Source of the DNA: an uncultured Chthonomonadaceae bacterium
GTDB taxonomy: Bacteria > Armatimonadota > Chthonomonadetes > Chthonomonadales > Chthonomonadaceae
Direction of reading: 5' to 3'
Length of the DNA: 64,000 bases
Assembly (NCBI GenBank): GCA_963817895.1
Contig: CAWFQB010000002.1
Span: 576,001-640,000, forward strand
Under the pieces are notes generated by a model. The model was not told the DNA's origin. It saw nothing but the letters and a program-made list of their open reading frames with translations, and did not search any database. The position numbers and the translations under genes are program-made. Shown in pieces: positions 27,484 through 58,695 of this stretch. Position 1 is the stretch's first letter. Every line of letters starts with the position of its first letter.

Positions 27484-28781
27484 GGGACTCTCTAGAATTA
27501 AGTTGTTCCATTAGCAACGGTGTCAGGTCGTATCTCAACGAACCACTTGTCCAAGCCAGGTAGTCGGCGCACCTGAGTTTCCAGGGCTTGCATAGCTTTT
27601 TGGCTCAACTTCACGCCGATGGGATAGGTCTGTTCTATCAATTGGACGCTCGGAGGCTTGCCTTTCCAGGTCATGGAGCGGGCAAACTTGACCACGGCAT
27701 CTACACTGTCGAGCCAGTCGCCGTTCCAGTGGTTTTCCAAGACGCCCCAACAGCGTTCCACAGGATTGTACTTGCTGTGGTAAGGCGGATAGTACGCCAG
27801 TTGCACACTCAATCCCGTTTGCTGGACGAACTGCACCAGCCGATGCAGGAACTGTGTGCGCCGACTATGACACTCCGGCCCGTTGTCAAGGTTGAGGTGC
27901 AGCGTCGTGATGTGCGCAAAGCGTTGCCGGTTGGCTTCCCACCAGTGGTGGAGAATGTCGGCCAGGCAGTCACTCGTGACCTTTGACGTGCCCGCGTACA
28001 GCGCCAGTTCGTCCTCAGACGGCAGCAGCAACCCAACGGGCGTAACCTGAGCGCTCGGGTGAAAGTCATGGTCGGCGGCATGAACTTGGACGCGGTTGTT
28101 GCCGCCACGCGAATACTCGCCTACCTTCACGGTGGCTTTGGCATCCATAGAGACCCGCAACGTGGTTGCGTCGGTGTCGGCTTGCGAGTTGACCTGGCTC
28201 AGTTTGTCAAAGATGGCGTCGGTTTCGGCAATCTTTTTTTGGGCAGGCTCTTCTGCACCTTCTTAGGATGGTAGCCCAGGCGCGTGAGGCGCGTGCGGAT
28301 ACTCTCCTCACAGGGGAGTTCGCCTTCGGTGTAGCCCTTTTGCAGGATCAGTTGCCGACGCACCTCGGCAGCCGTCAAGCGGGTATATAACCGCTGATTG
28401 CGAAACTGCGGGTCGGTCTGGCTCTGCCCATCTACAAGCGCGCGGATGTCGTCGAGCAGGTGGGGCAACCGCGCTTCGGCGGGCTTGCGTCCGCGCAGCG
28501 CCAATGCACCGGCACAGGTGACGCCGCTACGCAGTTCGTATCCACCTTTGCGCAGCGTGTCGCGGTTCCAACCCAGTTCGCGTTGCGCCAAGCGTTGTCC
28601 ACCCGCGCCAAGTTCGCGCACAATCCGCGCCATGAACAAACGGCGCGTGCTACCTTTGAGCGTATTAGCCGTCTCGATGAACACAGCCTTGAGGCTGTCG
28701 GTAAGTTCCACAGAGTAACTCCTGCATGGTAATAGCAGGTTGTTCCATGTTCTCTGGCATATTTTAATCTTTGAGAGTCCC
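27484..28781 (-). mobile_element. ISAzo13 family insertion sequence (1298 bp) with imperfect terminal IRs and TTA target duplication
   Basis: Ends gggactctc...gagagtccc; TTA at 27481-27483 and 28782-28784; transposase inside. Confidence 0.88.
27498..28711 (-). CDS. ISAzo13 family DDE transposase in two frames joined at an AAAAAAAG slippery site (~28233-28240)
   Basis: RVSMDAKA, LDNGPE, YYPPYHSKYNPVE motifs; N-terminal GRKP...SQTDPQF...YTRLT. Confidence 0.9.
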
Positions 28782-28805
28782 TTACAGACGTGGCATAGGA
28801 CGGGC

Positions 28806-30200
28806 TTACGGTTTTGGCTTTTCGGATTCGGCCAGATGGCGCAGGGTTTCGCTGACGACGAGCATGGCGCGGCCCTGATGATAGGCTTCCGTCCATTGGT
28901 CGCTTTTGATATGGCCGGGAATGGGGGTACCGTCACGGCTGACAGTGGCATACCAGCCCCCGTAACGATTATCGGTTTGATGGGCGCGAATAAACTCCCA
29001 TTGACGCAAAAACGCCTGCCAGTAACGCGGCGTTTCCCGCCCATATTTTTCGTGCATCAGCAGCAGGGCGTTCAAGCCTTCCGCTTCCACCCACCAGATT
29101 TTGTCCGTGACAACCGGCGGGCCGAACGCCGTGCCGGAATCGTAAAAGCCGCCGTTCGTCTCGTCCCATCCATATTCCAAAGCGTGATCCACCAGTTGCC
29201 GCGCCGATTTCCACGTTTTGGCGTCCTGCCCTATGTTCAATGCCTGCGCCGCTTCCACGAGCAAAAACGCGGTTTCCACGTCATGCCCGAAGGAATCGTG
29301 GTCGGGAATGGGGCGCCATGCCGGGGTGTAAAACAGATTCATGCAGCCGGGTTCCACGACGATACGGTCACGGACAAGGGCAAACACCTCTTTCAGCCGT
29401 GTCCGTACCCCCGCATCCGGCCACACGCCATACAAAGCCGTGAGCGCTTCCAATAGATGAATGTGCGTGTTCATGGACTTGTAGCCGTAATGTGTTCCGA
29501 TGAAGTCATTAGCACCGGCATTGGCGGTGGCAGGCGGCGTTAGAATCGGCTTGCCTTCCCGCGTAAGGCTCTCGTAATAGCCGCTATTGGATTTATCGTG
29601 GGCGTGGGCTTCCAGCCAACCGTAAGCGCGTTTCGCCAGATCGAGAGCGCGAGTCTCTTTGGTTGCCTGATAACACGCCGCCGCCGCGTAAATACCGAAT
29701 GCGATGCCGTAAACATGTTTTTCGCCATCCCGTTCCGGCTGTCCGTTTTCATCCAATGCCCAGAAGAAGCCGCCGTGTTCTTTATCCCACAATTTGCTGT
29801 CCAGAAAGTCCAGTCCGTGCCGAGCGGCGTTGCGGTATGTTTCCGCCTGTTCGGGGTAGCGCATTGCAGACTGCGCGGCGATCCACGTCAGGCGCGATTG
29901 ATACACCAGTCCTTTGTCGTTCTTCGGGTCGCGCGTCCAATCCTCGCGGAAGTTCTGATAAAATCCGCCGTGTTCATTGTCAAGGGACGCGGGAAACCAT
30001 TTTGCCAGCACATGCTGCTTCAAATTGGTTTCTACATTATCAGCAAGCAGGCGGTAGTCAGCGGGGGACGGCGCGGCATCAGCAGAAAGCATTACATTGA
30101 TTCCAGTAGTTTTAATTTTGAATGGCTCTGACGCGGCAGCAGGCGAAGACAGAATGTACAGCGGCAGCGTCAACATTGACAGCAAGCAGAAATATTTCAT
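28806..30200 (-). CDS. AGE family epimerase/isomerase (cellobiose 2-epimerase-like) with signal peptide
   Basis: DKEHGGFFW, KSMNTHIHLLEA, SFGHDVE, KIWWVEAE, YH. Confidence 0.9.
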   Translation of the reverse strand: MKYFCLLSMLTLPLYILSSPAAASEPFKIKTTGINVMLSADAAPSPADYRLLADNVETNLKQHVLAKWFPASLDNEHGGFYQNFREDWTRDPKNDKGLVYQSRLTWIAAQSAMRYPEQAETYRNAARHGLDFLDSKLWDKEHGGFFWALDENGQPERDGEKHVYGIAFGIYAAAACYQATKETRALDLAKRAYGWLEAHAHDKSNSGYYESLTREGKPILTPPATANAGANDFIGTHYGYKSMNTHIHLLEALTALYGVWPDAGVRTRLKEVFALVRDRIVVEPGCMNLFYTPAWRPIPDHDSFGHDVETAFLLVEAAQALNIGQDAKTWKSARQLVDHALEYGWDETNGGFYDSGTAFGPPVVTDKIWWVEAEGLNALLLMHEKYGRETPRYWQAFLRQWEFIRAHQTDNRYGGWYATVSRDGTPIPGHIKSDQWTEAYHQGRAMLVVSETLRHLAESEKPKP

Positions 30201-37042: not shown

Positions 37043-37585
37043 TCAGACACGTTCCAGCGGTTGATGGGGTTCCGGCGGCAGGACAACGCAGATACTATCG
37101 CCGGGACATACTTCGCCATCCGTAAGAACAATGCCCATAATGCCCGCTTTGCGAATCAGATTGCCCGCTTCGTCCCGGTCTAAGGTTGCCGCCATCAAAC
37201 CCGGCTGAAAATTGTCCAACTGCGAACAGGGATTGCGCAGCCCCGTCACTTCGACAACAGCCGTATCGCCAAGATGCAGGCGCGTTCCTTTCGGCAATCC
37301 GAGCAAATCAAGGCCGCGCGTCGTGATGTTTTCGCCCATGTCTCCGGCGGATACCGCAAACTCGGCGTCTCGTAATTCGTCGTGCAGTTCGGCGTGTATC
37401 AAATGTATCTGCCGCAAATTGGGCTGTGTTGGGTCTTGCGCCACCCTCGAACGATGCTTCACCGTTGCGCCACAATGCGCGTCCCCCTCCACGCCAAAAC
37501 CACGCAGTACACGAATACCGCTTTGGTTCTCCTTGCTGAACGTGTGCGTAGTCTTGCGGCTTACCGTTACCACTATGGCGCTCAT
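37043..37585 (-). CDS. MOSC domain-containing protein
   Basis: GVEGDAH, GENITTRG, RNPCSQL, GDSI. Confidence 0.9.
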   Translation of the reverse strand: MSAIVVTVSRKTTHTFSKENQSGIRVLRGFGVEGDAHCGATVKHRSRVAQDPTQPNLRQIHLIHAELHDELRDAEFAVSAGDMGENITTRGLDLLGLPKGTRLHLGDTAVVEVTGLRNPCSQLDNFQPGLMAATLDRDEAGNLIRKAGIMGIVLTDGEVCPGDSICVVLPPEPHQPLERV

Positions 37586-38376
37586 CGAATATCACTCCTA
37601 TGAGCAGCGCCAATGGCAATCATTTCAAATGCCGAGGCATAGTATTGATTTACATCCTTCAACACGTTTTCCGCATCAGCGCGAGGATCAACCTTAGAGG
37701 CAAACCATTGAGAAAACGTTACCATACACTCCTCATCAGCATTGCTCATGATTTCACTTGCCCAAAGAGTGTACTGAAGGTTAAATCTTTGTAAATCTTC
37801 CTTTGGATGAAAGCCGTGCCTCTGACAAAAATCTTGATAATCCTGTTTGAACACTCCGTTAGCAACCTTGTTCCACATGAAAGCTGTATCATATATCGGG
37901 AATAAACTGGGATTGAAAAAGTGCAGGAACTTGGAAACCGCCATCCACGGATAAACGGTTGGATAACGCAGTGTAGGCTTAATCTTACCGATGCTGGTCA
38001 AACAAGCCTCGACTTTGTGGTTGCTGGCACTGTTGATGAGGTTAGCAGAGGTAAGCGAAGATGAGCGTGAACAAAGTTCACACTCATTTGTTAAAACTTG
38101 GAAAGTTTCTTCAGCACTCCAACATGGACCCGCAGCATTGCGAAATACCTGCCAACCTGAGCGTAAACTTTCATAGATATGGCTGAACGCTTCCTGACTT
38201 TCTGGTTTGTTACCTTTCGCCGCAAAAGCCGTTTTCGCCTGGTTGTAGAGATACAACTTATGACTAAGGCTCCAGCCTGTGGGAACGGTCGAATGGTAGG
38301 AGTCTAGAGCTTGTTTGGTATATGGCGCAGTATAAAAATGTGCTAATCTCATTTCTCTCCATTCTACAAGCGGCAC
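37582..38376 (-). CDS. Hypothetical protein (lower GC) with SKFLHF..P..FPIYD motif
   Basis: 264-aa ORF; AT-richer than neighbours; stop overlaps the MOSC start. Confidence 0.65.
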   Translation of the reverse strand: MPLVEWREMRLAHFYTAPYTKQALDSYHSTVPTGWSLSHKLYLYNQAKTAFAAKGNKPESQEAFSHIYESLRSGWQVFRNAAGPCWSAEETFQVLTNECELCSRSSSLTSANLINSASNHKVEACLTSIGKIKPTLRYPTVYPWMAVSKFLHFFNPSLFPIYDTAFMWNKVANGVFKQDYQDFCQRHGFHPKEDLQRFNLQYTLWASEIMSNADEECMVTFSQWFASKVDPRADAENVLKDVNQYYASAFEMIAIGAAHRSDIR

Positions 38377-41065: not shown

Positions 41066-41842
41066 TTGCAGCCGGAAATTTCCTTATTTGATGGCAAAGT
41101 CTGTTCTCGCTGCAAGATTTGGCAGCCGTTCTGTAACTATTCCAAAGACAGTCAGAAGCTGGATGGTTTAAGGTACTTTTGTAAGACTTGCCGCAAGAAG
41201 GATAAGACGGATCCCGCTTATACAAAGGCTTACAACGAAGCGAACCCTGAAATTCGTAAAGCCGCGATGAAGAAATGGGCGGACGCGCATAAAAGTGAAC
41301 GCAATGAGTATAATCGTCAACGTTACCAAAATCCGAAGATAGCAGAGAAACTGCTTAACAGGGTTAAGAAGTATGCTGCTGCGCACAGGGAAGAACGCCT
41401 TCGATATGGCAGAAAATGGCGTGATAACCACAAAACCTTGATTGCGCAAAATCATAAGTCTTATTATCCGGGCTATTACTTCGCGCTAAAAGCATCGCCG
41501 GAAGAAGTTCGTAGGCTGTTGCCGAAATTCAAACATGCTTCTGATGCTGCAATACTGGATTGGCAGCATCGTCATAAAACGCAGGCTCGTCATCGAAAGT
41601 ACGCTTATCGCTCAAGGAGGCAATCCACCGATGGTAAGTTTACTAATCAAGAGTGGCAAGCATTATGCGTGGAGTTTGGGAGGCGCTGTCTTCGTTGTGG
41701 GGGACATGATGATCTGACAGCAGATCACATCATTCCACTCGTCTTGGGCGGCAGCAACGATATTTCAAATATTCAGCCACTTTGTAGATCATGCAATAGT
41801 TGGAAAAACAAAAGAACCATTGATTTTCGGAACATTGTTTAG
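41066..41842 (+). CDS. HNH endonuclease with N-terminal zinc finger (phage-like architecture)
   Basis: CSRCK...DGLRYFCKTC; K/R-rich linker; CLRCG...DHIIPLVLGGSNDISNIQPLCRSCNSWK. Confidence 0.85.
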   Translation: MQPEISLFDGKVCSRCKIWQPFCNYSKDSQKLDGLRYFCKTCRKKDKTDPAYTKAYNEANPEIRKAAMKKWADAHKSERNEYNRQRYQNPKIAEKLLNRVKKYAAAHREERLRYGRKWRDNHKTLIAQNHKSYYPGYYFALKASPEEVRRLLPKFKHASDAAILDWQHRHKTQARHRKYAYRSRRQSTDGKFTNQEWQALCVEFGRRCLRCGGHDDLTADHIIPLVLGGSNDISNIQPLCRSCNSWKNKRTIDFRNIV

Positions 41843-48553: not shown

Positions 48554-49619
48554 ATGCAAATAATCACACCCCGGCAGTTGAGCAAACTGCTTCTAAACGT
48601 TGCCATGACGCGCACAGTTTTTATCTGGGGGCCGCCCGGCATCGGCAAATCCGCGCTTGTGGAACGGTTCGCCCGTGAGGTCGGGCTGGACTGCGTCTCC
48701 CTGCTCGGTTCGCAACTGGCCCCGGAAGACCTGATCGGCGTCCCGCGCATCGAAGATGGGCGTTCCGTGTTCTGCCCGCCGCGCATGATTGCCCGCGATG
48801 AGGCGTACCTGCTGTTCGTGGACGAACTCAACGCCTGCTCATTCGAGGTGCAAAAAGCGTTTTACAGCCTCATCAATGATCGGCGGCTTGGCGAGTACCA
48901 TCTTCCCGCCGGTTCCGTTGTCGTCGGGGCGGGCAACCGGGCGCAGGATCAGGCGATTGTGAAACCGATGTCGTCCGCCCTGATGAACCGGATGCTGCAC
49001 GTTGAATTGAAGCCGACCGCCCGCGACTGGCTGGATTGGGCGTATGCGCAGGGCATTCACGAGTGGATCATTCGTTACATCGAAACCCGCCCCGACCATC
49101 TGGCCGCGCCCGCCGCCCAAAACCGAAGAAACGTTCAGCACGCCGCGCTCATGGCATATTCTGAGCGACGCCCTGCTCGCTTACGGTTCCGAGGTCAACG
49201 CCGGACGAGATCGAAATGCTGGCGTCCGGCTGTCTGAGCGGCAGCCATGCCCGCAGTTTCGGCGCGTTCATCAAGCAGTTGATGGGAACCCTGCGCATCG
49301 AGAAAATACTGTCCGGCGAACAGCCGCTTTGCCGCGTTCCGCCGAAGACCGGGACGTGTTGTATTTCATTGTGCAGTCCATTCGCGCCCAACTCGCCAAA
49401 ACCCTGCCGCCCGAACGCGACGATGTCCGCCCCGCCCACCGCCAGATGGTCACGCAGGCCAAGCGCGTGTTGGTAGACCTGTGCGACATCAGCGTGGAAA
49501 TGGCGACGGTCATGGTAGCCGAAGAGATGGGCGAATCCGCCCGCAACCTGCCCGCGTGGTTTCTGGTGGAAGTGGTACGCGACCTGCCCCGTCTCGCGCA
49601 GCGCGTAGCGGTAAAATAA
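48554..49619 (+). CDS. MoxR-like AAA+ ATPase (AAA_5), with apparent frameshifts (~49110, ~49200, ~49335)
   Basis: GPPGIGKS Walker A, LFVDELN Walker B, AGNR, TPRSW in the shifted frame. Confidence 0.85.
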
Positions 49620-49681
49620 GGGGGCAGGATTCAGGATTCAGGGGTCAGGCGTAATCCACAATCAAAAATCGTCAATCAAAA

Positions 49682-51568
49682 ATGAACAAAGAACGGAAGC
49701 AAAAAGAACAGCATAAGGAAGACCGACTGACGCGGACGCGGCAGCGGATACGGGGCGCGTGTTCGCAATTGCACAAGTCCGTGCTGTCGCCACTGCTTGC
49801 CAATGTCACGCTGTCGGAATGTGACGAGTCGGACAGTGACGTTGCCATCGGGGGCGTATCGCCGTCGAGTAATGCGCTGTGGGTCAATCCGCATCGGCGG
49901 CAGGAGTTGGGCGAGGCGGAATGGACGTTCATTCTCGCGCATCTGCTGCTGCATCTTGGGTTGGGACACGAGGCGGCATTGCCCGATAAACACGCCCTGC
50001 TGTGGACGCTGGCCTGCGAACACGCTTCAGACAATCTGGCCGCGTCCCTGCATCTGGGACGCGCGCCCCACGATTACGGCGTGGATACCGCCTTTGCGGG
50101 CATGACGGAAAACACTATTTACGACCTGCTTGCCAACGACAAACGCGCCCTTGCCAATGTGAAAACGTATGCGGGCGCAGGCCGTTCCGACATCATACGC
50201 CGCGAACCCCGTTCCGGCGTATCCCGTTCCATCGGCGAGTTGTATCAAACAGGCGGCAAGCGGCGCGATTACGAAATGCTGCTGGCGGAAGGCATCCGCA
50301 TGGGCGTGGAACGGGCGGTCGAGGAGGCGGCGGACACATTGGGGCAGGCAACGGAAGACCGAACCAAAACATGGCGCCCGCTTGAAAACGCGAAACGCTG
50401 GGTGATGAACGAGCTTCCGCTGCTGGGGGCATTGGCGGCGCAGTTGCGCGTGATTGCCGATGGCGCGATGTGCGACCGCATGGACATACCCGTCGCGGCG
50501 GTCAATGCGGGATTAGGCGAAATCTATTTTCATACCGGGCGCGGATTGTCGCAGGAGGAGGTATTGTTCGTGTACGTTCACGAACTGCTGCACGTCGCGC
50601 TTCTGCACCATGCCCGCTTACAGGGCCGTGACCCCTATCTTTGGAATCTAGCGGCGGATTTTGTCATCAACGGCTGGCTGGTGGAGATGGGCGTGGGGCA
50701 GTTCCCGCACGTCGGCGGCCTGTACGATCCGCGCTTGAAGGGCATGTCAGCCGAAGAAGTGTACGATCTGTTGGGGCGTGACCCGCGCAAATGCAAAGAA
50801 TCTGGTCGGCTTCGGCGGCAAAAAGGGCGACGTGCTGCTGGACGAGCGGCGCATCTACAAGGGCGAAGTGTCCACGCTGGACGACGTATACCGGCGGTGC
50901 ATGGCGTCGGGATTGGCGTGTCAGGGGTACGGGCGCGGCACGATGCCCGCCGGACTTGATCGAAGAGATCAAATCGCTGTTCACGCCGCCCGTGCCGTGG
51001 GATGTGGAACTGGCGCGGTGGATGGACGTCGCATGTTCCGATTGTGCGCGAAACCCTGCGCTCGTATGGACGGGCCAGTCGGCGGCAGGCGTCCACTCCC
51101 GATATTCCGCGCCCCGCCCGGTATGTGCCGCAGGAGTGGCGCGACGCCTGCACGTTCGGCGTGGTTTTGGATACGTCCGGCTCGATGGATCGGGAATTGT
51201 TGGGGCGGGCATTGGGCGCAATCGCGTCCTATGCCGAAGCCCGCGAAGTTCCTGCGGTTCGACTGGTCTTGTGCGACGCCGCGCCGTATGACCGGGGCTT
51301 TCTCTGCCCTACCGACCTGCGCGGCATATTCCCGGTTCAGGGGCGAGGAGGAACGGTTTTGCAGCCCGCCATCAACTACCTGCTCAACCGCCCGGACTTT
51401 CCCGGTTCCGCGCCCGTAATGATTATCACGGATGGCTGGTGCGAGGAGGAGTTGCTCGTGCCGCGCGACCATTGCTTTGTTATGCCGCGCAAAGGCTGGA
51501 AGGAGGGCGCAATGCCGCTAAGAACGTCCGCCCCCATCTTCCGCGTCCTCAAACCGGATCAGGAATAA
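49682..51568 (+). CDS. DUF2201 putative metallopeptidase plus vWA-like domain protein, apparent frameshifts ~50800-51040
   Basis: HELLHVALLH and WNLAADFVIN; C-terminal VLDTSGSM MIDAS, GRGGT, ITDG. Confidence 0.82.
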
Positions 51569-51586
51569 CGAATAGGCGAGTGTTTC

Positions 51587-52210
51587 ATGCCGACAGAGAC
51601 TATTGCCGATTTAGACAGGGTTCCTATTGTGGAGTGCGGAGAACCGTTGGTGGATTTGCGAACGGCTTGCCCGAATGTGGAAGTCGGTACGCACCCGATT
51701 TTCCTGCGCTCCGGCGCGGCGGAACGCTTAAATGCAGCGCAGGCATGGCTGGAAACGCATCATCCCGGCTACGGTTTGCGCGTTGGCGATGCGTACCGCA
51801 GTTTCGACAAGCAGGCGCGTTTATTTCGCATTGCCTGCCGCGTTTCGCGTCTGCTGCATCCCTTCCGTTCCCGCGCTTATGTCCACGATGCCGCCAATAA
51901 GTACGTCGCCGCGACAGATACAATCTCTCCCCCGCCCCATACGACGGGCGGAGCAGTTGACGTCGGACTGCTCACGCCCAATGGCAAACGCGCCGATATG
52001 GGGCCGTTCACCCTTGCCGCAACCCGCGCCGACTACGTCGAACTCTCTCCCCTTGCCCGATCTCATCGTGAAATGTTGTTCGCCGCAATGGAACACGCCG
52101 GCTTTTCCAACTATCCCGAAGAGTGGTGGCACTGGTCCTACGGCGACAGCGGCTGGGCATGGCGCACTTCTCAACCCTGCGCCTGTTATAACAGGTGTTC
52201 CCTCTTATAG
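51587..52210 (+). CDS. D-Ala-D-Ala dipeptidase (M15/VanX-like)
   Basis: DAYRS, PHTTGGAVD, EEWWHWSYGD. Confidence 0.9.
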   Translation: MPTETIADLDRVPIVECGEPLVDLRTACPNVEVGTHPIFLRSGAAERLNAAQAWLETHHPGYGLRVGDAYRSFDKQARLFRIACRVSRLLHPFRSRAYVHDAANKYVAATDTISPPPHTTGGAVDVGLLTPNGKRADMGPFTLAATRADYVELSPLARSHREMLFAAMEHAGFSNYPEEWWHWSYGDSGWAWRTSQPCACYNRCSLL

Positions 52211-52252: not shown

Positions 52253-53653
52253 TCACTTTCCGTCTCGCCGCGTATCTCCTGGATATTTTGGATTCACAAC
52301 TCCGGTTTTAATTTTATAAGCGTAGAAAGATACTAGTGAGACACATACTAATGTTATGAGTACAATTCCTTGATACAACAAACTGGAAGGATTAACCCAC
52401 TTTAACGTCTCAGCAACCACACCCACAGTGGCTATAGTCATTCCAACTAACGCAATTACGTTGGAACGGCGGCGCATAGCAGAGACATCATATTTGATAT
52501 TGGTAAGTGTCTCTTGCACTACTTGAAGGTCTTTACTGTACGAGCGCGGCAGATTCTCTCGTATCCACTCACCATTGAAGACGGTGCTGTATATGCAGTT
52601 ACGCACCTGGAGTAAGCCGTTTTCACTGCGAACAATGCCGGACAGTTTCAGATGAGATTTGACAAGAGATTTTTCCTCGTCTTCGACGGGAATGTTTTCC
52701 AGTAATACCTTCTGGTAGGTTATCAGGGCTTCCTCTTTGTTAGGGGCGCGCAACAACAGCATATCTCGGATAAACTGAAGGTGACTGTCCTGCCGACTCC
52801 CCCTTTCCAGGAATATTTCGTGAACCACTTTATCTATGTCGGCTTCGTTCCAGTGGGCGCAATTCTGCTCACATAGGGCGCGAAATAGTCGTTGCGTCAG
52901 ATACGGATGCCCGCCTGTCCATTCCAGCGCCCATGTCACAACCTGCCGGGTTTGTCGGGAATTAAGGTTGAGGGGCTGCGCCAGAGGCAGTGTCTCTTCT
53001 GCCGTAAAGTCGGCGAGTTCCACGTGCTGTCCGATGTTGAACGGAGTGCGTGAGGGATCGCGGATCAGATCGCCGGGGGTTGCCACGCCGATTAGCACAA
53101 ACGAGAGCCTTTTGAGGTTTTCGTCCGTTGCCCGCGCGTTGTAGGTAGCGCGAATGGCGGCAAAGAAGTCGTCCGTAAAGCCAAGACTCAGGGTTGTATC
53201 TATCTCATCAATGAAGATAACAATGGGCTGGCTGACCTCGACAAGCAGAATCTGCTGAAAGAATTTCATCAGACGCTGTACCGGCCCAAGATCAGACGTG
53301 GTTTTCCACCATGTCAGCACGTCCGTCGAGAGAGGCAACTGCTCTTCTATTTTTATGAGCAGGCCCAGATACCAGGCTTCGGGAGTCACTTGCGTACCGA
53401 TTGCCGTCAGATCAATAATGACCGCCTGCACGTTTTGCTGTTTCAAACGGCGCGCGGTTTCGATCATCAGGCTCGACTTGCCGACCTGACGCGACGACAA
53501 AACATAGGCGAACGTACCGGCGCAGCACAGGTTCAGCAGATGCGTGTCCGCCTGTCGCGCGATGTACAATCCACCACCCGCCTGCACCGTTCCGCCCACC
53601 GTGTAAATGCCGGGCGCAGTTACTCTTTCCGCAATTTGCATTTTGACTCCCAC
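52253..53653 (-). CDS. AAA_35 (STAND-like) ATPase with two C-terminal TM helices
   Basis: YIARQAD, SSRQVGKSSL, IFIDEID, PFNIG, WTGGHPYLTQ; hydrophobic C-terminus. Confidence 0.88.
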   Translation of the reverse strand: MGVKMQIAERVTAPGIYTVGGTVQAGGGLYIARQADTHLLNLCCAGTFAYVLSSRQVGKSSLMIETARRLKQQNVQAVIIDLTAIGTQVTPEAWYLGLLIKIEEQLPLSTDVLTWWKTTSDLGPVQRLMKFFQQILLVEVSQPIVIFIDEIDTTLSLGFTDDFFAAIRATYNARATDENLKRLSFVLIGVATPGDLIRDPSRTPFNIGQHVELADFTAEETLPLAQPLNLNSRQTRQVVTWALEWTGGHPYLTQRLFRALCEQNCAHWNEADIDKVVHEIFLERGSRQDSHLQFIRDMLLLRAPNKEEALITYQKVLLENIPVEDEEKSLVKSHLKLSGIVRSENGLLQVRNCIYSTVFNGEWIRENLPRSYSKDLQVVQETLTNIKYDVSAMRRRSNVIALVGMTIATVGVVAETLKWVNPSSLLYQGIVLITLVCVSLVSFYAYKIKTGVVNPKYPGDTRRDGK

Positions 53654-53683
53654 GTAAAGCCTTCAAACAAAGCGACTGCGAGA

Positions 53684-54784
53684 TCAGGACGCAGGCGGCA
53701 TGTGGTTTTTAATCCAGCGCCCGTCAAAGACCTTTCGGTAAAGGCGGTTGCGGACATAAAGCCAATCTTGTTGACGATGCACGATGCCTGCCAGTTTCAA
53801 ATGGCACTTCAGCAGCGATTGTTCCTCATCCAGCACCTTGCGATCTTGCCTGTAAATCGCCTGGTACATTTGCAGGACGGTAAGGGCGCTTTCCGGATGT
53901 GGCGCGCGCTTGAGCAGCATGTCTTTGACAAAAGAGAGATTGTCATCGCCGCGTCCGCCGTCCTTCATAAATGTTTGGCGTATCAGAACTTCGAGTTCAG
54001 CCGGTGTCCATGCCTGAATCGGAACCTCTGCAATCAGGCGACATAACCTTTGCGTGAGGTGTGGGTGTCCTCCTGTCCATTCCAGCACCCCGCCAAACAG
54101 GTTCGACGCTTCCCGGTCGGGCAACTTCCAGCCACCAGTGAGGGAACACGCTTCTTGCTCGGTGAAATCGGTCAGTTCGATATGCTGTCCAATATCAAAT
54201 CGTCTTACGTTTACGTCGCGCAACAGTTCTCCGGGCGTCGCCACACCAACCAGAACAAAGGCCACGCGCCGCAGGTCGGGGTTTAAGGCGCGGCGGCTAT
54301 GCATCGCTCTGATTGCCATGAAAAAATCATCCATGGAAAACCCCAGGCTTAATATCAGATCAATTTCATCTATAAAGATGATAAGGCGATTAGGAACATG
54401 GGTGCGCAGCAGCTCCTCAAAAAAGTCAATCAAGCGCGGCCCCAGGGGCTTATCCCCGCAAGTGCTCCAAAGTTGCGCCACATTATTGGGAGAGCGCAGT
54501 TGGTCGCTGATCGTCGTTATAAACCCGTTATACCACTCCTCCTGCGTCAACTCCTTCCCAAGCGCCTGCAAATCCAAAAAAACCGTATTCGTGTCGTGAT
54601 TTTGCAGCTGATTCATCGCGCGCACGATCAGGCTTGTCTTACCCACTTGACGTGAAGCGAGGATATGCGCCGAATCCCCGTTAAGACAGTGCTTAAGCAG
54701 TTCGGCATCCGCTTTGCGCTCGATGTACAACCCTCTCTCCGGCGACACAGCCTCCCCAACAGTATACAAGGTTACATCAGACAC
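53684..54784 (-). CDS. Stand-alone AAA_35 ATPase
   Basis: GTG start overlapping the upstream stop; YIERKAD, ASRQVGKTSL, IFIDEID, WTGGHPHLTQ. Confidence 0.88.
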   Translation of the reverse strand: MSDVTLYTVGEAVSPERGLYIERKADAELLKHCLNGDSAHILASRQVGKTSLIVRAMNQLQNHDTNTVFLDLQALGKELTQEEWYNGFITTISDQLRSPNNVAQLWSTCGDKPLGPRLIDFFEELLRTHVPNRLIIFIDEIDLILSLGFSMDDFFMAIRAMHSRRALNPDLRRVAFVLVGVATPGELLRDVNVRRFDIGQHIELTDFTEQEACSLTGGWKLPDREASNLFGGVLEWTGGHPHLTQRLCRLIAEVPIQAWTPAELEVLIRQTFMKDGGRGDDNLSFVKDMLLKRAPHPESALTVLQMYQAIYRQDRKVLDEEQSLLKCHLKLAGIVHRQQDWLYVRNRLYRKVFDGRWIKNHMPPAS

Positions 54785-57424
54785 GAAGATGCCTCCCGAA
54801 ATATTCGGCATACAGGGAACAGCGCGGCACAACAACGCTCTTTTCCAGCCGTACCAATCCCGCCCCACGCAGCCTAAAACTCATCTGCTCGTCATTCAGC
54901 GCACTTTTATTAATTACCAGTCGCATCGCCTTCATCTGATCCGGCTTGTTGGAAAGGCGCAGCAAATGGTAACGCAAGTGATCTCCGAACGGCCCGTTGT
55001 CCAGGGCAGCGGTTTCAAAAAACTCCTGCGCCGTATACCGTTCCTGCGCCAACAGATATAAGGCCCGCCGCGTCAGATAAGGATGCCCTGCCACCAATAG
55101 GTGTAATCGCGCGGCCTGTTCTTCATCCAAAGAGGGCGTATGGAGTTGATTTAGCTGGCGAACCTGATCCAGAGTAAAGTCGCTCAAGTCCACGACTTCG
55201 CCAACATTGAAAGGGGATTGATGCAGATCGTCTATCAATTGGTAGGGTTCGGTAGACGTTACCAGTGCCAGATCCAGTCGTTTCCAGCCGGGATCGCTGC
55301 CCGTCACCGCGCGATTGTTGTGCCAACTGCGCAGCATCGCAAAAAAATCGGCGCGGAAAGTGGTATCAAACACCGTTTCCACCTCATCCATTGCAAGAAC
55401 CACCGGCGCGTTAAGGGAGGGAAGCAAATGTTTTCCCATATAGCGCGTACAGCGTTGATTGTTACTCAACGGCGTATCCCAGTATTCCTGCACTTTGTCT
55501 TCGGCCTGTAGCGCGTCGGTCAGTGTCAGGCAGAACTGCTGGTAAAAACTATTCGCATCCAGAAGCGCGTCGCGTCCAAACAGTTGAAAATCAAGAAAAG
55601 CGACCCGTTTGTCGCGTTCCAGAGCCTCCTGCATCACTCAATTCAACAAGGAGCTTTTCCCTATTTGCCGGGGGCCTTTGATGGTGATCGTCACGCCGGA
55701 ACCGCGAATGGCTTCAATCGCCACGCGGTCAGCTTCACGCGCCACATAGAAAATCGAATCAGCCTGCATCGTCCCTTCAGGCTTTTCCAGCGGGATCGGC
55801 TGCGCGGCAGGGGCAGGCGCGACGGAAACAAGGGAATTGGGCGCGGGATTTAGAACCGGGATTTGCGCCAGTTCCGCGCCTCCGATAGCCTGCATCAACT
55901 GTTGCGCCAGCGCGTCAGTATCCTGTGGCCCGTTCCAAACAGCCCACTGAATAGGATCAAGATAGGAGTTCAGAGGATAGCGAAGGGGTTCCTTATAGCG
56001 CAGGCGTACCGGCAGAATACGCGGCCTGCCTTCGCGCTGCGCGCGGCGATGCGCGATTGCCACCTCCCCGCCCACCATCTCGCTGTTGACCGAGTGTTCC
56101 GAAAGCAATACAATCAGGAAATCAGCCCGTTCCAGTTCCGATTGTATGCGCCCCGCCCAATCCGTTCCTATTTCGATAATCTGGTCAATGAACACGTCAT
56201 GATGCGGGCGCAGAGCGGCGTAAAGTGCGCTCGCCACGCCGGTATCTTCCTCCACATGCCGATAGCTGATAAAGATGCGCACGCGCTTGTTTGCTGCCAA
56301 AGTGGTTTCCGTTGAAGTTGGAGGTTGCGCAGTAATTACGTTGGGCGTAGACTGTCCTGTGGCATTTGTCGCGGGGGCAGTCGCGTTGCTGTTTGTGGCG
56401 GAAGCCTGACCGCCTGTATTGACCGCGCCCGTCTGAACACCGATAGCCGCAACATTTGCCTGTGCAGGATACGTGGTAGACGTGGCGGCAGGAGATTTTT
56501 GCAGCAGGTACTGCGTCAGATGGTTTCGCGCCAGTTTCTCGAACTGCGCCTCGCCATTATACGTCCAGTACAGCCCCTCGGCGGGAAAGCGCCGTTTGAA
56601 TTCCAGCACATGCTTGAATTGATCAATCTCTTCCAGCGAGGTTGGCAAATACGCCTTCTGGTTGAAGTAGACCATGATTTGCGGACGGCCTGTTTCCTGC
56701 CAGGAGTGGTACGCGGTTAAAAATTCGTGTTCCGTACCCGATCCAGCATCCTGCGTAGGTGTCCCGAAGCGTTTCCAGAAAACACCGATGAGGATGTCCG
56801 CGTCCTGAATACGCAGGGAAGTGTCTACAACCCCCTGTGGGCCATACGGAGAAAATCCCGGCGCGGCGTCCGTTTCCCAACGTATCAGTTCAATCACTTT
56901 GCCCTGCGCAGGCGCGATAGTGTGGTTGATACCTCCACCACCCCCGCAAGCAGGTCGCGCTCGGCCTGCACATCGCCGGGGGAAGCAACGACAACGCGCC
57001 ATACCTGGCGCGTTGGCCCCGAAGAAGGCGGCGTAACGGTGGAGGCATTGTCGGAAGTGTTGACGGGAGTAGTTACGTTGCTTTGCGCAGAGGGGAAGGG
57101 ATTAGATACACCTTGTACGTTGCTTCCCTTTTGCGTGGCGGCAGTGGAAGCGCCTTGCTGTCGTAAAGTATGCACGAAGGCATTCAGGCGCTCGTTTGAT
57201 GGATTGATTTCCCACGCGCCTTCAGCCAGTTCAACGGCGCGCCCGCGCGCTACCGCCCACTGTACCAGATCGAATACTGTATCCGCCAAGCTGCCCTGCC
57301 CGACAATGGCGTTCAGGTTCATACCCAGCCGAAACCTGATCAGACGTTCCAATTCCCCGCGCGAAGGATAAGCCGCCAGTAACGCCTCATACAGCTGCTG
57401 AAACTGTTCCGATGTTAATTCCAT
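54777..57424 (-). CDS. EAD1 - DUF4062-like - TIR - AAA_35 multidomain protein, with a frameshift near 56930 and an in-frame TGA at 55638-55640
   Basis: EAD1-like MELTSEQFQQLYEALLAAYPS...FDLVQWA...NPSN; VVVASPGDVQAER...SGTEHE; TIR IFISYRH...SEHSVNSEMVGGE; GPRQIGKSSL, MDEVE, SPFNVG, GHPYLT. Confidence 0.8.
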
Positions 57425-57606: not shown

Positions 57607-58582
57607 TTATGCGCTTGCTTCAACAATGCGGCGGGGCGACGAATAAAGGCAAAACGTTGCAGTCACAATATCTTTAAGGACAGCGCTTACTGCGGGTTGG
57701 GACACGTACTCGGTTCGGCAGCGTTTCAGGTAGTTCAGGCCGTGTACCTGGCCGGTCATTTCCAGTTCGCCTTTGTAGACGGGGTCGTGCCAGCCTTCGA
57801 TGTCGATGCTGCCTTTGAAGCCGCCCCGGCGCAGATCGCTGATGATGTCGGTCCAGTTGCTGTCGCCAAAGCCGGGCGTGCGGTGGAAGGCGAACTGTGG
57901 CGGGCCGTGACGCCGTACTCGCGCGACCACGTCCCATAGGACCGTCGCGTCCTTGCCGTGGACGTGGAAGATCTTGTGCACCCATTTGCGCAGTTGCGGC
58001 AGTGGGGTCAATCAGGCTGACCATCTGGTGACACGGCTCCCACTCCAGGCCCAGGTTGTCGGCGGGAACGGCGTCGAACATCATTTCCCAGGCGGCGGGC
58101 TGTGCGCGATATTCCAGTCGCCGCTGCTGCCAGTCGCCGCCCATGTCGCAGTTTTCAAAGGCGATCTGAACGCCTTATCCGCGGCCCGCTTTGCCAGCGG
58201 CCCGAACACTTCCTTGAAACGGCGCGAGGGAGTCGGGAATGGGCTTGCCGCGCAAGCCGCCCCGTAAATCCGGCGACAATGTCCGCGCCGAAAGGGGCGC
58301 GTCGTCAATGGCGGCCTCCCACGCCCGCAGGGTTTCCAGGTCGGTTTCTTCGCCTTCCAGCGGGTTGCCGAACACGGCAAGGGAACTGACAACCGCCTGA
58401 TCGCCCAACGCCTCTCGGACACGCGGGGCCAGTTCTTTCAGGTTCGCGCCGCCGAGCGTCTGCCAGAACGAAATCTGGATACTCTCAAAGCCATGCGGCA
58501 AAATCTGCCGGATGTATCCGGCGCGATCGGCCTGCTTGCCGTCCGCCATCGTGCCGATGCGTATATCCGGCGTGTAGCTCAT
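57607..58582 (-). CDS. Sugar phosphate isomerase/epimerase (TIM barrel), several frameshifts, 3' end uncertain
   Basis: GFESIQI, FGNPL, LEWEPCHQ, HVHGKD, SIDIEGWHD spread over different frames. Confidence 0.75.
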
Positions 58583-58695
58583 GCGATTTCCCCTCATAAC
58601 AGCAGATTATTCTCAACACCGTTCAAGCAGAACAGGGCCGTAGGGACACAACATGTTGTGTCCCTACGCAGTCTTACAGGTTATAATACTGGTTA

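Follow-up and report, generated by a model that had tools for sequence, protein, structure and literature searches.

A rare three-gene version of a paired AAA_35 STAND ATPase family, with TIR and predicted NADase domains, in an uncultured Chthonomonadaceae bacterium

The genome of an uncultured Chthonomonadaceae bacterium (NCBI GenBank assembly GCA_963817895.1) encodes three neighbouring AAA_35 (PF14516) ATPases on contig CAWFQB010000002.1. We analysed a stretch of 64,000 nucleotides of this contig (positions 576,001 to 640,000 of the forward strand), here called the window, and positions given below are those of the window unless another locus is named. The three genes are co-oriented on the minus strand, at 57424-54777 (gene 1), 54784-53684 (gene 2) and 53641-52253 (gene 3). 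In brief, gene 1 encodes EAD1, NIR/DUF4062-like and TIR domains in front of its ATPase, gene 2 encodes a bare ATPase, and gene 3 an ATPase followed by a predicted membrane hairpin. All three exceed the Pfam cut-off for AAA_35 (27 bits), with E-values of 5.7e-9 and 1.8e-86 for the two pieces of gene 1, 1.2e-31 for gene 2 and 4e-37 for gene 3. They share the motifs Walker A RQ(I/V)GK(S/T), Walker B hhhDE and GHP. The profiles and motifs thus bear out what a sequence-only reading of this DNA had noticed, including the overlap of genes 1 and 2, which is 8 nucleotides given a GTG start of gene 2 at 54784. Genes 2 and 3 are in the same frame, separated by 42 nucleotides (53642..53683) with two stops between them, and a GGGAG ribosome-binding-like site precedes the ATG of gene 3. 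Promoter and terminator scans stayed at chance level and a repeat search gave nothing meaningful.

The same reading took the genes for three paralogous ATPases. All belong to AAA_35, but by sequence they are of two subtypes and not three equals: the ATPase of gene 1 is type A, and those of genes 2 and 3 are type B. Identity between the ATPases is 26-28% for gene 1 against genes 2 and 3, and 45% for gene 2 against gene 3. We conclude that the locus represents an uncommon form, with three genes, of a widespread family of putative two-protein A + B switches; it has an extra stripped-down ATPase and no outside sensor. Atypical here are the short two-helix hairpin of gene 3, which comes without a sensor, the tail-less, divergent type B of gene 2, and the two NADase-type domains of gene 1. 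None of the genes contains repeats, so the absence of a repeat sensor holds, and none matches an Avs or NACHT model. Searches with PADLOC 2.0 and NCBIfam 20 gave no whole-protein match to a named system, only domain-level matches, none of them near the NCBIfam cut-off.

Gene 1 (54777..57424) would be about 880 codons long if whole; the copy in the assembly is broken twice. Its predicted order is EAD1, linker, NIR/DUF4062-like domain, linker, TIR domain and type A AAA_35 STAND ATPase. The EAD1 adaptor domain (57164..57424; E 6.3e-20, 71.9 bits against a cut-off of 24.2) is the only EAD1 match in the genome, which is 81% complete. The TIR domain (55896..56285) matches TIR_2 at E 1.8e-21, and the glutamate of its SEMVxxE motif, which we presume from its position to be catalytic, is conserved in at least 90% of the family rows. 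Both domains had been called correctly beforehand. The NIR/DUF4062-like domain (56496..57004) is a predicted NADase and matches the N-terminal part of PDC-S60 at E 1.9e-28. The DUF4062 profile itself matches only partially, at 18.4 bits and thus below the cut-off of 24.7, because the domain is split by a frameshift. The earlier call of a DUF4062-like domain stands in so far as the domain, with an X placed at the break, shares 33-41% identity with three intact homologues in alignments that run through the break; these score 26.4 bits, 23.9 bits and no match with the same profile. The glutamates of the NIR TEHEF motif near 56735 are the same as in the intact homologues. The type A module (54780..55790) was placed by its motifs and the AAA_35 profile, with Walker A near 55676, Walker B near 55397, QSPFNVG near 55220 and GHP near 55088.

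The first break is a one-base frameshift in the NIR domain (56931..56932). A single contig from run X1, of depth 2.1, has one more base here, and the frameshift is probably an assembly error, a lone low-depth contig being weak evidence. Run X1 may be the source sample, since the three X1 pieces listed match the window without differences. Its contigs differ from the window by further single bases at 49111, 49201, 50798, 51031 and 58003, all in broken neighbour genes. The second break is an in-frame TGA just after Walker A (55638..55640), outside the coverage of run X1. We considered recoding of TGA and rejected it: TGA terminates 1,734 of 4,292 long open reading frames and is the commonest stop of this genome, which makes recoding unlikely. 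A scan of in-frame stops for sequence-context bias gave 130 candidates and no enriched motif; the stop at 55638-55640 fell just under its filter. While this stop stands, the present copy of gene 1 is a poor test subject, and the intact homologues in loci L145 and L137 are better ones.

Gene 2 (53684..54784, 366 residues) is a divergent type B ATPase that ends with the module, without tail and without a predicted membrane helix, as had been seen earlier. Walker A and B are intact, and the loop R-T-P-F-N is replaced by V-R-R-F-D. Against the alignment of cognate type B proteins, gene 2 keeps 68 of 81 invariant columns (gene 3 keeps 78) and 20 of 95 variable columns. With its intact reading frame and constrained invariant columns, gene 2 looks selected. 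It is only 45-49% identical to the partners of TIR-A proteins. A fragment, P0137, is 70% identical to gene 2, groups with it at support 100, likewise lacks a tail and has the loop altered to end in R-F-D. At 50% identity, 3,936 clusters match gene 2 with E up to 1e-30; a metagenome scan with gene 2 over 68 stretches gave five relatives, all 30-33% identical, and no close relative with gene context. Two further proposals concern gene 2. That it is a recent duplicate of gene 3 was rejected, given the 45% identity and separate branches. That it lacks a type B arginine finger was weakened, as only 92 of 144 B modules have an arginine at that position.

Gene 3 (52253..53641, 462 residues) encodes a type B ATPase, an amphipathic helix and a predicted membrane hairpin (52304..52459). 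The two hydrophobic helices expected from the sequence-only reading are predicted at residues 395-416 and 421-446, and both outer flanks are basic. Gene 3 is 59-63% identical to the partners of TIR-A proteins and is thus a probable cognate-type partner of gene 1. Its tail of 97 residues has no Pfam match, contains no repeat or ligand-binding sensor, and matched no effector family (best Atlas score 0.79, chance level). Among the complete B genes of the 80 loci described below, 45 of 48 have tails of at least 150 residues. Most B proteins differ in having one helix and a coiled coil in place of the hairpin; a two-helix tail of this kind recurs in L145, P0217 and P0301.

A structural model of gene 3 (pLDDT 85.5, pTM 0.74, 31 sequences in the alignment) is closest to two archaeal proteins, PAB2304 (2qen; Z 18.7, root-mean-square deviation 4.7, 308 aligned residues) and SSO1545 (2fna; Z 18.1, deviation 5.1, 312 aligned). 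Plant NLRs and Orc1/Cdc6 follow at Z 15.2 or less. Foldseek ranked Orc2 first, then PAB2304 and SSO1545. The model includes a P-loop domain, a GxP helical domain and a winged-helix-like domain, together with the GHP motif, and so predicts a STAND fold, as suggested earlier. A sequence search of the PDB found no solved relative of the AAA_35 ATPases.

The AAA_35 family gives the locus its context. The A and B profiles align over 322 columns at 30% identity. In the best 80 of 567 genome loci, a set heavy in Nostoc and so not independent, a B gene lies directly downstream of the A gene in 74, elsewhere in the locus in three, and is missing from three. A then B is a fixed pair in this family. Among 69 B genes whose ATPase is complete, 61 have a hydrophobic helix within the 40 residues behind it, and a membrane helix follows the ATPase in 109 of 124 single-B representatives. 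In 54 of those 61 B genes the net charge is higher before the helix than after it, which, on hydropathy calls, suggests that the ATPase is inside and the tail outside. A predicted membrane helix behind type B is therefore the family norm, and the anchor of gene 3, once thought special and tied to membrane damage, is better read as a tether or a sensing element than as a membrane-damaging effector. What comes behind the helix in B relatives is usually WD40, CHASE2 or FGE-sulfatase, with TPR/PD40 and others among the tails; such a C-terminal input domain is common in the family but not universal. On the A side, a read-through query gave 712 X-TIR-A matches among 8,000 scored candidates; the fronts before TIR-A include CHAT, kinase, cyclase, trypsin and EAD7, and ParA in loci L144 and L035. 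Two Chlorohelix plasmids (L196 7986-14685 and L197 6910-13646) encode near-identical pairs in reversed order, a B protein with transmembrane helix and WD40 first, then an A protein with a kinase-like front.

A search of 1.84 billion proteins, with summed scores, which favour multi-module proteins, gave 147 new representatives: 124 single B, 20 B-B, one B-B-B and two that begin with an A-B fusion (P0311 and P0284). B-TIR-A fusions are found in P0003, P0014 and L063. Five B-B proteins (P0208, P0211, P0212, P0217 and P0301) have only one or two membrane helices behind and no sensor, and correspond to genes 2 and 3 joined in one protein. Related gene orders are found at L137 (kinase-TIR-A, then B-B with transmembrane helix and TPR), at L063 (TIR-A, B-TIR-A, and B with transmembrane helix and WD40) and at L145 (TIR-A, then B with two helices). 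Of 124 single B proteins (selected by score), 123 keep the P-[FY]-N loop that is changed in gene 2. In the fusions all 20 first modules keep it, but only 10 of the 21 later ones do, in a count that omits one fusion whose module is partial. A module with a changed loop occurs in 11 of the 20 doubled-B fusions. Other architectures seen were an A-B protein fused to a third, different ATPase (P0311), a B fused directly to DUF4062 without a membrane helix (P0285) and a B-spacer-B without tail (P0215). Locus L144 (468-6670) has a TIR gene, the ParA-TIR-A fusion, a bare B and a TPR-S gene; it looks as if a TIR-ParA-type system had been joined to an AAA_35 pair, and passages of the ParA preprint do not mention such a STAND type.

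Gene 1 appears foreign to its genome. Its ATPase shares 53-61% identity with TIR-A proteins from other phyla, among them cyanobacteria, Acidobacteriota and Chloroflexota, but 32-36% with most A copies of its own genome. It belongs to the TIR-A clade, whereas the A copies native to the genome form a clade that excludes it (support 100). The pair of locus L059 is the nearest row in both the A and the B tree, with weak support (80 and 89). The trees were made with FastTree only, with near-identical B rows removed and A rows hand-picked. A search of 60 relatives gave no orthologous locus. Genes 1 and 3 appear to have been transferred as a cognate pair, and we claim no donor.

The genome contains 23 AAA_35 modules (10 type A and 13 type B), with several A-B pairs among them, and the family is found on 44 plasmid records and one viral contig. 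AAA_35 genes had been expected to occur singly or in pairs; runs of three are in fact not rare, and this genome has a second one (L003 4314-13339, contig C10 of genome G000). That run is of the order B-B-A, with two long B proteins carrying WD40-like tails, then a TIR-A gene. On contig C4 of the same genome, L011 (4122-5480) encodes an intact protein of 452 residues whose N-terminus is NIR/DUF4062-like. Its operon also includes an ATPase-like gene and what may be a DNA methylase gene, and the locus may serve in defence. The same contig has a tight cluster of 16 tRNA genes (227906-230044), as in mobile elements.

The division of labour proposed for this family recalls sensor-helper NLR pairs of plants and animals, in which two linked STAND proteins share sensing and execution. 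The likeness is one of analogy; the locus is of a different STAND clade, with a predicted membrane-anchored partner. Types A and B probably correspond to Npun2340/2341, a family of the MNS clade. The closest known system is the AAA_35 paired STAND itself, which has the same two subtypes in the order A then B, TIR before A, a membrane helix behind B and the same fold closest to archaeal SSO1545 and PAB2304. The locus differs from it in an extra tail-less B with a changed loop, in the EAD1-NIR front on A and in lacking WD40, CHASE2 or FGE input. Avs and bNACHT proteins, including the NIR-bearing Avs2, likewise combine a STAND ATPase with NADase-type effectors, and share the probable assembly-triggered NAD+ depletion. 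They are, however, single tripartite proteins with a C-terminal repeat sensor, whereas the present locus puts effector and input on separate ATPases and has neither such a sensor nor an Avs model match. The EAD-coupled and EACC1 systems (Kaur 2020, 2021) share EAD1, swappable effectors and a STAND ATPase with a membrane segment, and are likewise spread among filamentous and complex bacteria, but our operon lacks a second EAD1 and the MoxR-vWA-VMAP, GAP1 and EACC1 components. The Npun2340/2341 family of the MNS clade is named in the text of PMC8195603. Passages of bioRxiv 10.64898/2026.01.04.697583 have MNS in a tree only; the journal version, PMC13581612, has no AAA_35 or Npun entry in seven of its supplements, and three further large files may classify the clade. 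The A-B pair is not mentioned in the passages of bioRxiv 10.64898/2026.10.19.760177 and PMC10907252. We found no experimental study of the AAA_35 A-B pair in the literature covered, subscription journals lying outside it. The family is thus already named, apparently without experimental study, and the locus adds a variant.

We somewhat favour the interpretation that the locus is a horizontally acquired, membrane-tethered paired AAA_35 STAND switch that leads to NAD+ depletion. The domain content, the predicted fold, the A-then-B order, the natural fusions and the apparent selection on gene 2 come from the sequences, and from these we infer the rest. The usual NLR layout would be split over two proteins in this family: a cytoplasmic type A with swappable outputs before the ATPase, and a type B whose ATPase would lie inside the cell, followed by a membrane helix and then by a variable input domain. 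Gene 3 would be the membrane-anchored partner of gene 1. As gene 3 has no outer domain, its hairpin is the likeliest input and may sense the state of the membrane or a membrane-inserted protein. Gene 2 would be a second B subunit, predicted to bind nucleotide, and its altered contact loop suggests that it caps or tunes the assembly. As in STAND biology generally, nucleotide exchange would drive co-assembly, the gene 1 ATPases included, and this would cluster TIR and NIR, so that NAD+ is degraded and growth of the attacked cell stops. EAD1 has no apparent partner in this 81% complete genome and would serve for self-association at most. EADs are described as homotypic adaptors in PMC7159879, and bioRxiv 10.64898/2026.09.04.749371 shows DUF4062/NIR to be an anti-phage NADase in other systems. 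The hetero-oligomeric complex proposed at the outset is plausible, given the natural A-B, B-TIR-A and B-B fusions. A rather doubtful refinement is that this is a minimal sensor-less form of a split membrane-tethered NLR-like system in which non-identical STAND ATPases co-assemble; the hairpin would report envelope disturbance, the soluble loop-altered ATPase would cap or gate the assembly, and NIR and TIR, as two different NADases on one subunit, would execute. If so, the recurrent loop loss in doubled-B proteins would mark a built-in terminator subunit.

A role in defence, binding between the proteins and membrane damage are proposals. Several points weigh against the paired-switch interpretation. 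The exact triple of A, bare B and B with hairpin is not conserved in any locus examined. Searches of 61 related genomes and of 251 from the phylum gave no copy of it, nor did those of 301 genomes from each of three other classes and of 151 from a further phylum, the large searches scoring only 3-7 candidates per genome. The TGA at 55638-55640 is either a real nonsense mutation or a base error, and no X1 contig covers it. In the fusions it is the membrane-proximal module whose loop is altered, whereas here it is that of the soluble gene 2; moreover, the B-B fusions are mostly single metagenomic sequences seen without gene context, and the bare B of L144 ends just before an in-frame hydrophobic remnant, resembling a nonsense truncation. 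The surroundings of the triple do not resemble a defence island: with PADLOC at 1e-10, none of seven window neighbours matched. For 19 related loci, 112 of the 139 neighbours listed were compared and 18 matched, a count without a random control. Those that matched were mostly partial generic domains (kinases, ABC ATPases, TnpB-like proteins), and one kinase matched the PD-T4-6 model over its full length. Finally, many A proteins carry signalling outputs (BTAD, kinase) and many B proteins CHASE2, GAF/PAS or FHA, so defence is not the only plausible role of the family.

Some of these points would also fit a decaying relic, in which a transferred cassette has suffered a real nonsense mutation in gene 1, the sensor of gene 3 has been lost and gene 2 is a mere remnant. 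The TGA, which is corrected by no read seen, the apparently orphan EAD1, the negative search for the locus in 60 relatives, and broken or truncated B genes elsewhere (e.g. L044, L085, L099 and L144) agree with this. We nevertheless regard it as unlikely, as short-read contigs correct the frameshift and several neighbouring ones, the gene 2 form is also present in P0137, and gene 3 ends in a clean hairpin of a kind also present in other sequences. Genes 2 and 3, which might have been decayed duplicates, are both intact and constrained, and a recent stop would leave the earlier function of the layout unaltered.

The signalling outputs and inputs of relatives, together with the 23 modules of this genome (BTAD-type A partners among them), the missing island context and the single viral contig, would be expected if the locus were a general transmembrane signalling switch with no link to invaders, TIR and NIR serving as scaffold or signal maker. 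This we consider quite unlikely for the present copy, which stands in the TIR-A clade apart from the genome's own A copies. Its two NADase-type domains and EAD1 are all associated with conflict in the passages of PMC7159879 and PMC8195603, in line with the conflict-type domain set recognised earlier; the family occurs on plasmids, and its members freely exchange one output for another (CHAT, trypsin, kinase, cyclase, ParA and EAD7). The original model, a gene 3 hairpin that damages the membrane and is activated with TIR in a three-ATPase complex, we judge improbable. A two-helix hairpin on an oligomerising STAND protein does resemble two-transmembrane pore effectors, no sensor is present, and the hairpin is unlike the tail of most B proteins. 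It lies, however, at the C-terminal input site that the anchor occupies in other members of the family, and the gene 3 tail resembles no effector family above chance level. The observation made at first is thus confirmed and its interpretation partly supported.

The significance lies mostly in the family-level pattern and less in this possibly broken copy. The AAA_35 family is very large and mobile. If A and B are an effector/sensor pair across the membrane, bacteria would have their own equivalent of paired NLRs, one able to read extracytoplasmic signals, and the sensor-less and doubled-B forms would be the simplest cases for the question of the trigger.

Next to the locus lies a convergent operon on the plus strand (48554-52210), encoding an AAA_5/MoxR-like ATPase, a DUF2201 metallopeptidase-VWA protein and a D-Ala-D-Ala dipeptidase; its frameshifts match single-base differences in run X1. 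Upstream of gene 1, a xylose-isomerase-like TIM barrel gene (57607-58597, minus strand) is in several pieces; run X1 differs at one or more of the breaks (58003), which is probably an assembly error. Further away, two neighbouring open reading frames at 27498-29044 (minus strand) resemble what we take to be a fragmented transposase. A low-GC stretch (0.50-0.53; 37582-38376 and 41066-41842) encodes a protein of 264 residues and, presumably, an HNH-like protein.

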